A DNA stretch of 26,000 bases, taken from NCBI GenBank assembly GCA_037133055.1, contig JBAXOY010000036.1, forward strand, positions 1 to 26,000, in the 5' to 3' direction. The stretch is from Chlamydiota bacterium. Lineage in GTDB: Bacteria > Auribacterota > Tritonobacteria > UBA1439. Below, in pieces: positions 2-20,471 of this stretch. A program made the position numbers and the translations under genes. The notes beneath the pieces were generated by a model. The model searched no databases. It was not told the origin of the DNA and saw only the letters and a list, made by a program, of their open reading frames with translations. The stretch's first letter is position 1. Each line of letters opens with the position of its first letter.

Positions 2-682
2 GAAATCAACGCCTACCACGGCGACTGCGAGTACCATATCCTCGGCTACTTCATCGACCACCGCGACGCGCGCCTGGCCGTCGCCCTCGCGGAACTCAGG
101 GATGCCAGGGTCACGCGCATGCGCCTGATCGTCTCGAAACTCGGGGAACTCGGCATGGAGGTGAGCCCCGGGGAGGTCCTCGCCGTCTCCGGGGACGGCT
201 CCGTCGGCAGGCCCCACATCGCCAGGGTGATGGTCAATAAGGGCCACGTTTCCTCGATGCGGGAGGCGTTCGACCGCTTCATCGCAGAGGGGAAGCCCGC
301 CTATGCGCCGCGATCGAAGCTCACCCCCGCCGAGGCGATCGCGCTCATCAAGGCGGCCGGCGGGCTCGCGGTCCTGGCACACCCGGGGCTCTGGAGAGGC
401 GACGAGCTGATTCCCCAGCTCGCCGCATGGGGGATCGTCGGCCTCGAGGTGTACACCCCTGATCACACCGGCGAGCAGGTCGGCCGCTACCGCCGGTTCG
501 CCAAAGAGCTCGGGCTTATCGCCACGGGCGGCAGCGATTTCCACGGGTGGAACACCTCCTCCGGATGCACGTTCGGCGTCGGACGGACGCCCCCCGGGGA
601 GTTCGCCCGCCTCCTGGAACTCGCCGGGGTAAGGCCCGAGCTATGGACTGCGCGGCAACCCGCCTCGCGCGGGGACGGGTGA
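2..682 (+). CDS. PHP-domain metal-dependent phosphoesterase (TrpH/YciV-like), 5'-truncated by window edge
   Basis: Frame is open from position 2 (EINAYHGDCEYHILGYFID...) into ORF 119..682. Motifs HILGY, GRPHIA, VLAHPG, GLEVY and TGGSDFHG are typical of this PHP family. Confidence 0.88.
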   Translation, partial: EINAYHGDCEYHILGYFIDHRDARLAVALAELRDARVTRMRLIVSKLGELGMEVSPGEVLAVSGDGSVGRPHIARVMVNKGHVSSMREAFDRFIAEGKPAYAPRSKLTPAEAIALIKAAGGLAVLAHPGLWRGDELIPQLAAWGIVGLEVYTPDHTGEQVGRYRRFAKELGLIATGGSDFHGWNTSSGCTFGVGRTPPGEFARLLELAGVRPELWTARQPASRGDG

Positions 683-15136: not shown

Positions 15137-15211
15137 CGTCGCCCCGGGGCGAAAGCGGCTCAATCAGCGGCTCACCTCGGCGCTTTCCACGGAATCGCGG
15201 CCCGCGATCTT

Positions 15212-15220
15212 TGCTATACT
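15212..15220 (+). promoter_or_regulatory. Extended -10 element (TGCTATACT) for the rmuC operon
   Basis: TGn-TATACT 21 bp upstream of the rmuC ATG, followed by an AAGGAGG RBS. Confidence 0.55.
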
Positions 15221-15241
15221 ACGGGGCGAAGGAGGGATGCC

Positions 15242-16471
15242 ATGCTCCAGTTCCTGCTTCTCCTCGCCGCGGCGGGCGCTGCCGGCATCGTCGCAAGTTA
15301 TTTCTGGAAGGCGAAGGCCGACCGCGCCGCCGACGAGCTCCGGGCGCGTCTCGAAGCGGAAAAGGCCCGCGATCTCGAGGCGCTGCTCGACAGGCTCAAG
15401 GGCTCTTTCGCCATCCTCTCCCAGGAGGCCCTCGAACGCAGCACCGACGGGTTCCTGAAGCTCGCCGGCCAGACGCTCGGGACGAAGGTGAAGGAGGGGG
15501 AGAAGGAGCTCGAGGGCAAAAAGCAGCTCATCGACCAGAGCCTGAAAACCATGACCGCGGAGCTCGACAAGGTCCGCGCCGCGCTTCGCGAATTCGAGAA
15601 CGAGCGCGGCCGGCAGTACGGCTCGCTCACGAGCCAGCTCAAGTCCGCGGGAGAGGTCACCGCCCGCCTCGAGCAGACCACGGGACAGCTCACGGCGGCG
15701 CTGGCGAGCACGAAGCAGCGCGGCCAGTGGGGCGAGCGCATGGCCGAGGACGTGCTGCGCCTCGCCGGGTTCAAGGAGGGGATACAGTACACCGCGCAGA
15801 AGGGGATCGAGGGCGTCGACGCGCGCCCCGACTTCACCTTCTTCCTCCCCGGCGGCCTCGTCGTCAACATGGACGTGAAATTCCCGCTCGACAACTACCT
15901 CAAGTGCGTCTCCGCCCAGAGCGACGGGGACAGGGAGCGGCACAAGGCCCAGTTTCTGCGTGACGTGCAGAACCGGATCAAGGAGGTCACCGGCAGGGAG
16001 TACATAAACCCCGAGTCCCGCACCGTGGATTACGTCCTCGTCTTCATCCCGAACGAGCAGGTCTACGCCTTCATATGGGAAAACGCCCGGGAGATCATCG
16101 ACCGCGGGCTCGAGAAGAAGGTCCTCATCTGCTCGCCGGTGACGCTCCTCGCCATACTCGGCGTCATCCGCCGGGCGGTCGAGAACTTCAACCTGGAGAA
16201 GACGACCGCGAACATCCTTTCGCTCCTCGGCGCGTTCTACAAGCAGTGGAACAAGTTCACCGAGGGGATGGAGAAGATGGGCAAGAAGATCGGCGAGGCC
16301 GAGGAGGAGTACCAGCGCCTCGTCTCCACGAGGAGAACCGGACTCGAGCGCCCGCTCAGGAAGATCGACGAGCTCCGCCAGAAAGGCGGGATCGAGATCG
16401 CGGAGCTCCCGGAGGGAGACGCCGACGAGGGGGCCGACGGGGGCGGGGAGGACATCCTCAAGGCCTCCTGA
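15242..16471 (+). CDS. rmuC: DNA recombination protein RmuC (TM anchor, coiled coil, PD-(D/E)XK-like domain)
   Basis: N-terminal TM helix and coiled coil; motifs RGQWGE, RPDFTFFLPG...MDVKFPLDNY, VLVFIPNE and SPVTLLAIL; AAGGAGG RBS before ATG 15242. Confidence 0.9.
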   Translation: MLQFLLLLAAAGAAGIVASYFWKAKADRAADELRARLEAEKARDLEALLDRLKGSFAILSQEALERSTDGFLKLAGQTLGTKVKEGEKELEGKKQLIDQSLKTMTAELDKVRAALREFENERGRQYGSLTSQLKSAGEVTARLEQTTGQLTAALASTKQRGQWGERMAEDVLRLAGFKEGIQYTAQKGIEGVDARPDFTFFLPGGLVVNMDVKFPLDNYLKCVSAQSDGDRERHKAQFLRDVQNRIKEVTGREYINPESRTVDYVLVFIPNEQVYAFIWENAREIIDRGLEKKVLICSPVTLLAILGVIRRAVENFNLEKTTANILSLLGAFYKQWNKFTEGMEKMGKKIGEAEEEYQRLVSTRRTGLERPLRKIDELRQKGGIEIAELPEGDADEGADGGGEDILKAS

Positions 16472-16492
16472 GCGCCGGAGACACGGGCCGCC

Positions 16493-18151
16493 ATGGAATT
16501 CGTCCACCTGCACAGCCATTTCTGGGGCTCCTATTCCGACAGCGCCCTCGCGCTCGACGAGGGGCTCGACCGCGCCGCCGCGCTCGGGCAGCGGGCCATG
16601 TCGATCACCGACCACGGCGAGCTCGCCTTCGCCCCGCGCTTTTACCGCGCCGCGCGCGCCCGGGGGATGAACCCGCTCCTCGGGTGCGAGTGCTACTTCG
16701 TCGAAAACGCGCTCGAGTCGATCGCCCGGGACGACGCGCACCGGAACCATCTGGTCCTCATCGCGAAAAACGCGGAGGGATACCGGAACCTCGTCGCGCT
16801 CACGAGCGACGCGTGGCTCGACCGATGTTTCCGCGGGAACCGGGGAACGGTGGACTGGTCGCTCCTCGAGAAGTACCACCGGGGCCTCGCCTGCTCGAGC
16901 GGCTGCTTCTACGGATCGTTCCCCCTCACGACGATCCGGCACGGCCGCCTCGCGGGGGAGCGCGAGCTCCGGCGCTACCTGGACATCTTCGGCGGCGATT
17001 TCCACCCCGAGATGTCGAGCCTCGGCTACGAGGAGCAGAAGATCTCCAACGCCGCGATCCTCGACCTCGCCCCCCGCTACGGCCTCAACGCCGTGGTCAC
17101 CAACGACGTCCACTACGCCCACCCGGAGGACTGGATCGCGCACGACATCATCGTCAAGACCAGGTTCGGGAAGGTGAGCGATTTCAGCGTGTCGACCCGG
17201 ACGATCTGGCTGAAGGGCCTCGACGAGATGCGGGCGCTCGGGTTCCCGGACTCCTGCCTCGCCAACACGGCGGGCGTCGCGGCGGACTGCGACCTGCGCC
17301 TGCCGCCCTTTCCCGTCTCTCCCCCGGTCCTGCACGGGTCCCCCGGGGCGGACCTCCAGGCGCTCGCCTCGCGCTGCGCCGAGGCCGTCGCCGGGATGGC
17401 GCCGGGCCTTCGACGGACCCGGCTCATGAAGCGCCTCGCGCGGGAGGCGGCGGGCGTCGGCGCGCTCGGCCTCGGGGGGCTCGTCCTCGCAGTCGCCGAC
17501 CTCTCCTTCTTTTTCAGGAGAACGCGCGGGCGCGTCCGGGCCGCGGGCGGCGGCTGGGAGGGGAGCGCCCTGTTCCGCCTGCTCGGCATCTCGGGCGACG
17601 CTCCCCTCAGCCCCGCGATACCCGATCCCGCATCCCTCTCCCCCCTCGCGGTCTCCTGCCCCGACCCGGGCACCGCGGCGAACCTTCTTCTCGAAAGGCT
17701 CGGGCCGGAGAGGGCGTGCCGCGTCGCGGAGTTCGTCCCGATCCGCGGAGGGGACGCGCTGCGCGCTACGGCGGAGGTGCTCGGCGTACCCAAGAGGGAG
17801 CGCGTGAAAGGGCTGCGCGCCGTGCGGGGGGAGGATTCCGTCGCCGGAAACCTCGCGGGCAGCAGGGCCTGCGCCGCCTTCTGCGCCGCGAATCCGCTGG
17901 TGGCCCGGTGGGCGGGGAAAATCGAGGGAATCCCGCGCATTTCGCGGCCTTCCCCCGGCGCGCTCGTCCTCACGAACGGGCCGCTGCGGGCTCTCCTTCC
18001 CCTGAAAAGGATTGGCGGAACGGTCTTCTCGCAGTACGACGCCGAGGGGGTGTCGATCGCGGGCTTCTGCACGGTCGAGTTGACGGACGCGGACAAAAGC
18101 CGCGCGGTAAAGGTCGAAGGCAGCCCTGTGCCCGTGGGCCTGGACTTCTGA
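16493..18151 (+). CDS. DNA polymerase III alpha (DnaE)-derived protein: intact PHP domain plus degenerate, truncated polymerase palm/thumb remnant
   Basis: PHP motifs FVHLHSH, ITDHG, GCECY, HLVLIAKNAEGYRNL, SSGC and VTNDVHY. Downstream DnaE-like segments (RLARE, GSALFRLLGI, KIEGIPR, SQYD) lack GRGS, PDIDID and KxDFLGL. Only 552 aa. Confidence 0.8.
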   Translation: MEFVHLHSHFWGSYSDSALALDEGLDRAAALGQRAMSITDHGELAFAPRFYRAARARGMNPLLGCECYFVENALESIARDDAHRNHLVLIAKNAEGYRNLVALTSDAWLDRCFRGNRGTVDWSLLEKYHRGLACSSGCFYGSFPLTTIRHGRLAGERELRRYLDIFGGDFHPEMSSLGYEEQKISNAAILDLAPRYGLNAVVTNDVHYAHPEDWIAHDIIVKTRFGKVSDFSVSTRTIWLKGLDEMRALGFPDSCLANTAGVAADCDLRLPPFPVSPPVLHGSPGADLQALASRCAEAVAGMAPGLRRTRLMKRLAREAAGVGALGLGGLVLAVADLSFFFRRTRGRVRAAGGGWEGSALFRLLGISGDAPLSPAIPDPASLSPLAVSCPDPGTAANLLLERLGPERACRVAEFVPIRGGDALRATAEVLGVPKRERVKGLRAVRGEDSVAGNLAGSRACAAFCAANPLVARWAGKIEGIPRISRPSPGALVLTNGPLRALLPLKRIGGTVFSQYDAEGVSIAGFCTVELTDADKSRAVKVEGSPVPVGLDF

Positions 18152-18189
18152 CGTTCGATGAAGGAATGGGAGGCGGAGGAAACTATGAT

Positions 18190-18230
18190 GTAGCCCGCAG
18201 ATGAACGCAGATCGTCAGGATGAACGCAGA
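18190..18230 (+). repeat. CGCAGAT(GA)-family ~9-mer repeat block; 32-bp near-identical copy at 25717-25748
   Basis: gtagc(c/a)cgcagatgaacgcagatcgtcaggat is shared with 25717-25748 (1 mismatch). Confidence 0.85.
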
Positions 18231-19416: not shown

Positions 19417-20346
19417 ATGAGGATTTTCTTTGCCACCCGGAACATCCTCCTCCTCGGGGCCATCGCGCTGGGTCTCGCATTGGGGGACCGCGTTGCATGG
19501 CTCGATCCGCTCGCCATCCCGATTTTGATGGCCATCATGACGGTTTCGATGAGCGGCGTCGCATGGGACCGGTTCCGGGATCCCCGGCTCCTGGCGCGCC
19601 CCGTCGCCGTCGGCATCTTCCTCAACCACCTCGTGCTCGGCGGCGCGACGCTCGCCCTCGGGTGGGCGTTCGTCCGCGACCCGGAGCTCAGGGCCGGCTT
19701 CGTGCTGGTCGCCGCGGCGCCGCCCGGCATCGCCATCATACCGTTCACGCGGATCCTCGCCGGCGACCTCGCCCTCTCGACCGCGGGGGTCGTGGGCGGT
19801 TTCGCATCCACCCTCGTCATCGCCCCACTCGCCGCCGCCGTGTTTCTCGGGAGCGGGCTGATCACTCCGGGTCATCTCCTTCCCGCGATCCTCAAACTCC
19901 TCGTGGTCCCGTTCATCGCGGCGCAAATGATAATCCGGGCGGGCCTCGCGCACCGCGTCTCCCGCTGGCACGGCACCGCCGTCAACTGGGGCTTTGCGGT
20001 CATCGTCCTGGCCGCCGTCGGCGTCAATCGCGGGGTATTTCTCGGCGACCCCGGCATCCCCCTCCGATGCGGCGCCGCGGCGATTCTCAGCGTCTTCGGG
20101 CTCGGGTGGCTACTCAACGCGGTGTTCGCCCGGGCGGGCGTGGACCGCGAGAAGCGCGCGAGCCTGGTGCTCATGGGGACCGTCAAGAACTCGGCGTTCT
20201 CGACCGCGGTCGGCCTCGCCCTGCTCGGGAAAACCGCCTCCGTTCCGGGCGTGATCGTGACCGTCGCGATCATCCTCTTCCTAGTAGTCGCCCCGCACTG
20301 GCTCGGGGGTAAAGGCGGACGGGGAACACGAAACGGCGGCGGTTGA
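19417..20346 (+). CDS. Bile acid:sodium symporter (BASS/Acr3-like) family membrane transporter
   Basis: About 9-10 TM segments with AGFVLVAAAPPG, LAGDLALS and GTVKNSAFS motifs. Confidence 0.72.
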   Translation: MRIFFATRNILLLGAIALGLALGDRVAWLDPLAIPILMAIMTVSMSGVAWDRFRDPRLLARPVAVGIFLNHLVLGGATLALGWAFVRDPELRAGFVLVAAAPPGIAIIPFTRILAGDLALSTAGVVGGFASTLVIAPLAAAVFLGSGLITPGHLLPAILKLLVVPFIAAQMIIRAGLAHRVSRWHGTAVNWGFAVIVLAAVGVNRGVFLGDPGIPLRCGAAAILSVFGLGWLLNAVFARAGVDREKRASLVLMGTVKNSAFSTAVGLALLGKTASVPGVIVTVAIILFLVVAPHWLGGKGGRGTRNGGG

Positions 20347-20371
20347 CACACGCAGCGGGATGGTCTAGAAT
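20343..20371 (+). promoter_or_regulatory. Near-consensus sigma70 promoter of tRNA-Leu (TTGACA-17 bp-TAGAAT)
   Basis: TTGACA at 20343-20348 and TAGAAT at 20366-20371, 13 bp upstream of the tRNA 5' end. Confidence 0.8.
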
Positions 20372-20384
20372 TGCGTTTACACAT

Positions 20385-20471
20385 GCGGAAGTGGCGGAAC
20401 TGGCAGACGCGCTAGATTCAGGGTCTAGTCCCGGCAACGGGGTGGGGGTTCAACTCCCCCCTTCCGCACCA
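20385..20471 (+). tRNA. tRNA-Leu (anticodon CAG)
   Basis: Acceptor stem GCGGAAG/CTTCCGC with discriminator A and encoded CCA; D-loop with TGGCAGAC; anticodon arm CTAGA-TTCAGGG-TCTAG; long variable arm; T arm GGGGG-TTCAACT-CCCCC. Confidence 0.96.

Follow-up and report, generated by a model that had tools for sequence, protein, structure and literature searches.

The open reading frame (ORF) at positions 16493-18151 (+) of the window, the 26,000-nucleotide stretch of DNA analysed here, raises the question of what a protein does that begins like the replicase DnaE, with a full PHP metal site, and stops without a working polymerase. The frame (P0001) runs over 552 aa without interruption and was taken as the real one because GC at third codon positions (GC3) lies at 0.84-0.98 throughout; two long ORFs that overlap it, 16075-18204 (+) and 15164-17335 (-), were dismissed on codon-position GC as GC-rich shadows. 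A PHP domain (aa 1-270, 16493-17302) is followed by a degenerate N-terminal palm segment (aa 271-410, 17303-17722), a thumb (aa 411-485, 17723-17947), the hairpin, helix and strand of the C-terminal palm (aa 486-535, 17948-18097) and a low-confidence tail that closes with PVGLDF and a TGA stop (18098-18151), all on the plus strand; fingers, HhH, OB and CTD regions are missing beyond it. Pfam matches PHP at residues 5-170 (E 1e-32) and, weakly, PF07733 (DNA_pol3_alpha) at 291-522 (E 1e-5), and detects no X-family domain in the protein. All NCBIfam DnaE models score far below cut-off (best 182 of 1260 bits), and hhalign confirmed both the homology to DnaE and the PHP-palm-thumb order (probability 99.96, E 2e-38).

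An AF2 model of the protein (pLDDT 83, pTM 0.85) superposes with residues 1-539 on residues 4-565 of E. coli alpha (Z 36.4, rmsd 3.8, 525 aligned) and also on residues 8-595 of 5LEW, in agreement with an earlier note on this DNA that had described the chain as colinear with the DnaE palm and thumb. Because the palm of 5LEW extends to residue 591 and its fingers start at 592 (PMC5636811), the superposition places the end of the chain at the palm/fingers boundary. A fingers/OB profile found no match in the protein or in three downstream frames, as expected from the earlier description of an uninterrupted 552-aa frame lacking fingers, clamp-binding and OB regions. The last residues (window 18125-18151; P0003-P0006) conform to V-x-x-D-F in five close homologues (PVGLDF, PVAMDF, PVALDF, PVAGDF and PVAADF); this end follows a variable, low-confidence linker, is missing from other genera and looks like a short binding motif.

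In alignment with the nine intact DnaE1 proteins of host genomes, residues H7, H9, D16, H41, E66, H86, C138, D205 and H207 (codons starting at 16511, 16517, 16538, 16613, 16688, 16748, 16904, 17105 and 17111) fall on the PHP metal ligands, at the very positions named before. Together they form the HHDHEH[C/H]DH motif, designated 'active' in PMC12926913. HHDHEHCDH is complete in 61 of 61 complete family members: 39 of 39 in alignment A2, where three of the 42 rows begin late and have the remaining six ligands, and 22 of 22 proteins that played no part in building the family profile. Compared with 116 DnaE PHP domains, the family has fixed R84 (41/42), W108 (39/42), K222 (35/42, with Arg in three further members), R224 (38/42) and F231 (41/42), all within the PHP domain, and it retains the wedge-hairpin Arg, R117, in 32 of 42 members. 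The sequence alignment shows that the primer-path loop and beta-hairpin are both present and the hairpin Arg is kept, with the rim of the active site changed relative to DnaE at G12, S15, S17, W108, K222 and R224. R84 sits where DnaE1 has Y105, and the DnaE1 wedge hairpin bears K136/W137; loop and hairpin guide the primer in DnaE1, where mutations at Y105 and K136/W137 lower exonuclease activity (PMC5636811), and the equivalent Y107G gave a 22-fold higher mutation frequency in M. smegmatis (PMC12641269). Judged from sequence, K222 and R224 would lie near the metals.

The motifs of the polymerase active site are replaced as the earlier note had stated, with AAGGGW at 350-355, PLAVSC at 384-389, SPGALVL at 487-493 and TVELTD at 527-532, and the loss of GPGRGS and FERFLNPER is borne out by the degenerate N-terminal palm. 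Its exact equation of PLAVSC with PDIDID is less secure, for the register at this strand is ambiguous: MAFFT and hhalign place D391 on the first Asp with the remainder of the strand deleted, and the AF2 model, with a strand at 385-389, favours P384/A386 in place of both Asp. Whichever register is used, DxD is absent, here and in 11 of 11 members that keep the palm; their third catalytic Asp position is held by Glu in 8 of 11 (E529 in the 552-aa protein) and by Asp in 0 of 11. An intact catalytic triad, which the earlier note had entertained as a counter-possibility, is therefore not what these proteins contain.

Most relatives are reduced further. Among 42 aligned members, the N-terminal palm is full-length in six, a shortened linker of 77-79 aa in two and deleted in 34, which have just 28-48 aa between PHP and thumb; in 11 of the 42 most of the thumb tip is missing in addition. 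The thumb helix-loop-helix of DnaE provides additional duplex contacts (PMC3919608). The base of the thumb is kept family-wide (EGxPR; R482 in 37/42), P503 of the C-terminal palm hairpin is found in 42 of 42, and 33 of 42 members are hit (E <0.01) by a DnaE profile of thumb plus C-palm, six by one of the N-palm. As most members are more reduced than the 552-aa protein, the conserved unit is the PHP domain plus thumb base, and the 552-aa protein is the least reduced form, its palm still decaying. The model of a 401-aa member (pLDDT 95.6) superposes 373 residues on E. coli alpha 5-558 (rmsd 2.6, Z 46.2), compared with Z 13.5-15.3 for RNase AM-type PHPs. Given how well this model overlays E. coli alpha, the prediction is that thumb base and PHP domain stay together as one rigid unit; PMC3666897 describes the thumb as seated atop the PHP domain. 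P0015 (530 aa) has the best-preserved palm, with LLDIEIAFPD and an N-palm profile match at E 2e-15, and P0011 (455 aa) is intermediate, half of its N-palm segment being deleted. Many members have gained C-terminal TPRs, and three long ones (L059:4998-7580, L066:4998-7511 and L046:218-2452) bear what by eye are TPR-, STAS- and PilZ-like tails; Pfam matches PilZ in L059 alone of the three (E 9e-4, under the Pfam cut-off). Palm-less members form a single clade in 0% of bootstrap trees, and AU tests do not reject a tree that unites them (p 0.59, 0.44); the sequences are thus compatible with one palm loss or with several. Among 8000 candidates of 967-2760 aa no longer fused form of residues 275-552 appeared, which is weak evidence.

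In genome and protein searches the family stands clear of full-length DnaE in score (512 vs 368 bits), and a tree built from the PHP domain only unites 31 members in a single clade, with 16 DnaE outside it and support of 100/100; of the 42 A2 rows, 11, mostly close relatives, were omitted from this tree. Within the host phylum, 21 of 23 genomes from six related families carry the gene, cut by an assembly gap in one of them (G046); it was not found in the other two, which are 94-95% complete, nor in the remaining 56 genomes of the phylum. Named records with a member belong to Ca. Auribacterota, Tritonobacter, Erginobacter, Euphemobacter, Elusimicrobiota, Mcinerneyibacteriota and Lindowbacteria, and in the phylum to which the Elusimicrobia genome G079 belongs, at least 12 of 301 genomes have the gene, with up to four candidates scored per genome. 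Databases call the members 'PHP domain-containing protein', 'DNA polymerase III subunit alpha' or 'hypothetical'. One genome (G052; loci L121 and L219:3112-4626, the latter on contig C3) has two members, a 580-aa TPR type and a 504-aa type of another subclade, which adjoins a GAF-histidine kinase-like gene. A further protein, P0111 (1113 aa), is DnaE-like, with altered palm motifs and, by eye, a DnaB helicase-like C-terminal part.

When the C-terminal half was used as query, eight homologues of 499-552 aa were recovered, four of them 552 aa long at 69-99% identity, and both length and stop position are reproduced in independent assemblies. Within the genus, the PHP domain has an NG86 dN/dS of 0.19-0.23, the thumb 0.23-0.28, the N-palm 0.28-0.32 and the short C-palm 0.35-0.54; between genera the N-palm reaches 0.34-0.88, and all of these values are biased upward by the high GC3 (near 0.9). 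For one within-genus genome pair, PHP identity is 87%, against 85% for the DnaE1 PHP. Between genera (G000 vs G004 and G007) it is 65-75% for PHP and 35-46% for the N-palm, against 77-80% for DnaE1 of those genomes; no part of the protein evolves faster than the N-terminal palm. The orthologues are under purifying selection. As established by sequence comparison, the family is thus a duplication-derived DnaE paralogue that has lost the triad, fingers, OB and CTD, forms one clade and has an invariant metal site, and the previously proposed repurposed, conserved, polymerase-dead paralogue with the PHP site as its selected function holds good. The accompanying idea that the polymerase scaffold is kept for DNA-end binding is weakened: the N-palm evolves fastest, 34 of 42 members have dispensed with it, and 11 of the 42 have also lost the distal thumb.

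Two explanations that would make the protein a remnant or a fragment fit these data poorly. A decaying pseudogene or a misassembled dnaE might account for the relaxed palm segment between genera and for the two carrier-family genomes of 94-95% completeness in which no gene was found, yet it is scarcely conceivable and is refuted by the homologue set: the same 552-aa length and stop recur in independent assemblies at 69-99% identity, frames are open across phyla, PHP dN/dS is ~0.2, and the protein is only ~29% identical to host DnaE1. Neither uniformly full-length homologues nor neutral evolution, the signs by which the earlier note would have recognised a recent pseudogene, were observed. Very improbable, too, is a split DnaE like those of cyanobacteria and phages, in which the protein would be the N-terminal half and have a separate fingers-OB chain as its partner. 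The end of the chain at the palm/fingers boundary would suit such a half, as would the nearest Atlas clusters, which are PHP+palm proteins of 570-640 aa, many of them viral. All three catalytic Asp belong to the N-terminal half of DnaE, however, and here the triad is absent; strong fingers/OB matches in the genome, which is 92% complete, are confined to dnaE1 (contigs C96 and C85) and dnaE2 (C91), one further weak OB-like match being an unrelated membrane protein; and none of the 80 top-scoring viral loci, drawn from 46 of 64 parts of the collection, scores as a family member, a result on which we also reject a viral origin. The missing triad and the missing partner half effectively refute the split. 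Many viral DnaE frames that stop after ~385-440 aa without PDxD (L145, L150, L165, L179, L181, L183, L186-L188, L194, L208, L209, L214 and L215) are probably split or intron/intein-interrupted phage polymerases; they score as DnaE and not as members of the pseudo-polymerase family.

As the earlier note had anticipated, the host genome has a separate dnaE. Its dnaE1, broken over contigs C96 and C85, encodes an intact PHP and PDMDID, and a dnaE2 with a defective PHP lies on C91. The nine carriers whose DnaE1 was aligned all have the full set of nine PHP ligands in it; among five further hosts, three matched all motifs by pattern and two gave no clear match. Compensation for a dead replicase PHP is ruled out by the 9 of 9 intact domains. 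PolX is present in 17 of 21 carriers, the host genome included, and a DEDDh domain in 17 of 21. No obligate link to DnaE2, a DEDDh exonuclease or PolX was evident from searches of which one could not cleanly part DnaE1 from DnaE2, and no Q-x-x-L-F-type clamp-binding motif is shared among 46 proteins scanned. Since the hosts own an intact DnaE1 PHP and mostly PolX and DEDDh as well, and a shared clamp motif is lacking, the protein fills no obvious proofreading gap. The trans-acting proofreader that had been suggested for this locus is weakened accordingly, and recruitment to a polymerase (DnaE1, DnaE2, PolA or PolX) or to the sliding clamp appears improbable. The proofreading-type ligand set, the defective PHP of the host DnaE2, the V-x-x-D-F tail of five close homologues and TPRs that could recruit partners would all accord with it; against it stand the intact DnaE1 PHP, the absence of a common clamp motif, the lack of the V-x-x-D-F tail in other genera, and two genomes that uncouple the gene from DnaE2, one (G008, 94% complete) carrying it with no DnaE2 detected and the other (G003) having DnaE2 with no family gene found.

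The genomic setting offers a weak functional hint. In the window, rmuC (15245-16471 (+)) ends 21 nt upstream, and a flavodoxin-like gene and tspO are further neighbours in what is a setting of housekeeping genes. Although rmuC adjoins the family gene in 4 of 6 host-family carriers, we rejected it as an obligate partner: it is missing from two loci (G002 and G004) and present in G005, where no family gene was found. Across 30 loci, rmuC is upstream in four and a single upstream gene cluster recurs in 14, two copies of which tested as RNase HIII-type (RNase_HII + DUF3378). In 12 Elusimicrobiota loci the upstream gene encodes, by eye, a metallo-beta-lactamase-TPR protein in six and a TPR protein in four, one of each being confirmed; at L257:151-1395 and similar loci this metallo-beta-lactamase-fold and TPR gene lies directly upstream and has, by eye, a ComEC-like start, and downstream, some Elusimicrobiota loci have genes for a calcineurin-like phosphoesterase and for cation efflux. 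The family gene of L059 lies behind a cNMP-GAF gene. Two tandem 334-aa paralogues (L025:1060-3215), of which the one tested gave no Pfam match, are found ~1.8 kb upstream of the Tritonobacter family gene. No neighbour recurs across lineages, and nuclease neighbours are limited to related genomes; the PADLOC defence-system profiles (2023 library), which could reveal PHP anti-phage systems, matched 0 of 4 proteins at E 0.01. Three RNA contig sets from the same sample yielded nothing on expression, a blank that carries no weight. Because the neighbours vary by lineage, this is one protein family and not a multi-gene system.

What, then, does the protein do? As the metal site of the proofreading domain is complete, a free-standing end-trimming or end-cleaning enzyme is likely. 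Sequence, models and analogy with PolX lead us to favour, with some reserve, a metal-dependent stand-alone nuclease or phosphoesterase that works apart from the replisome on the 3' ends of single-stranded nucleic acid. Modelling predicts that C-terminal palm and thumb base remain packed against the PHP domain as in DnaE. By analogy to D226 of DnaE1, D205 would activate a water at a three-metal centre; a frayed or single-stranded 3' end could enter past the loop and hairpin that bear R84 and R117, both in elements lining the DnaE1 primer path; and K222/R224 may have taken over DNA binding formerly provided by the polymerase cleft. Its likely task would lie in repair or in the turnover of oligonucleotides, where it would trim 3'-5' or take off 3' blocks. 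All nucleolytic activities of the PolX PHP domain depend on a basic array (PMC6616362).

A tenable but clearly less probable reading makes the family a phosphoesterase of small molecules or proteins (pAp, cyclic or linear dinucleotides, pyrophosphate or a phosphoprotein), in which the thumb base serves as a structural lid and TPR, STAS or PilZ-like tails regulate or target the enzyme. Nine-ligand sites also occur in PHPs that act on small molecules or RNA. The remodelled rim could mean another substrate, the palm and thumb tip that offered most of the duplex-binding surface are lost, TPR fusions occur, and the sub-threshold PilZ-like C-terminus of L059 and the cNMP-GAF and His-kinase neighbours are signalling-like; the isolated PHP domain from T. 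thermophilus PolX is, moreover, described as having no exonuclease activity (PMC2665239), and the DnaE1 PHP, PolX and DEDDh of the hosts leave no evident gap for a 3'-end nuclease. On the other hand, the fold is still DnaE-type, with loop, hairpin and hairpin Arg retained, the residues newly fixed in the family are basic ones, situated in elements lining the DNA path of DnaE1, and the signalling-like fusions are confined to one subclade. Less probable again is a bolder version of the nuclease reading, in which the family would represent a freed ancestral replicase proofreader and the first C-family pseudo-polymerases, graded from the dead-palm 552-aa form through 455 aa to ~400 aa and TPR-/PilZ-tailed forms, and would work as a trans proofreader or 3'-end editor aimed by TPR partners.

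Comparison with known systems accords best with a C-family counterpart of non-canonical PolX. With DnaE1 (Taq 2HPI/4IQJ, M. tuberculosis 5LEW, E. coli 2HNH) the family shares the colinear PHP-palm-thumb-palm order, the HHDHEHCDH site, the loop and wedge hairpin and, in models, PHP-thumb packing. It differs in lacking the triad, GS/Arg motifs, fingers, HhH, clamp motif, OB and CTD, in its own R84/W108/K222/R224 and in forming a separate clade that coexists with intact DnaE1. Non-canonical PolX has likewise lost the triad and parts of palm and fingers and kept the PHP site, and has been shown to be a 3'-5' exonuclease (PMC9226535); in PolX-like proteins the polymerase domain is missing altogether (PMC12926913). 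Those are family X proteins with a C-terminal PHP, whereas the present ones are family C with an N-terminal PHP and a retained thumb base, so the family is an analogue and not a member. ImuB, also a catalytically dead polymerase paralogue, is a clamp-binding scaffold encoded with partners, unlike this family with its catalytic-type site and neither a shared clamp motif nor a conserved partner gene. The DnaE2/ImuAB mutasome, with a degenerate PHP, an active palm and an imuA/imuB cassette, shows the opposite conservation and other neighbours. Stand-alone PHP enzymes (RNase AM/YciV, the Cv1693 pAp phosphatase, YcdX, HisK, CpsB) have a free PHP barrel and a multinuclear metal site too, but match in fold at Z 8-15 as against 35-47 for DnaE, lack a DnaE thumb cap and score far below cut-off with NCBIfam. 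Split DnaE (cyanobacterial PRK09532, phages) similarly yields an N-terminal piece alone; here the catalytic Asp are lost and the genome has no partner half.

The family is real and conserved and apparently undescribed: the full texts searched, mostly open-access and exclusive of supplements, contain no description of such a DnaE-derived family; PMC4822814 reportedly treats a PHP as a pyrophosphatase. It could have been missed because surveys of C-family polymerases dropped such sequences, fragments without an intact polymerase site being removed in PMC3919608 and truncated sequences discarded ahead of tree building in PMC12926913. As the replicase counterpart of non-canonical PolX, it would be a case of a polymerase reduced to its PHP enzyme, here starting from a replicase and in several uncultured bacterial lineages. 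Its confidently modelled members of ~400 aa are natural minimal versions of the PHP proofreader, and the deletion series marks what the PHP domain needs of DnaE: the base of the thumb and the hairpin of the C-terminal palm.

Elsewhere in the window, an Rfam scan returned a tRNA only; this tRNA-Leu(CAG) has a near-consensus sigma-70 promoter (TTGACA-17-TAGAAT) immediately 5' of it (20343-20471 (+)). A second, unrelated PHP-type ORF at 2-682 (+), cut by the contig start, gives a weak PHP_C match only and is presumably YciV/TrpH-like.
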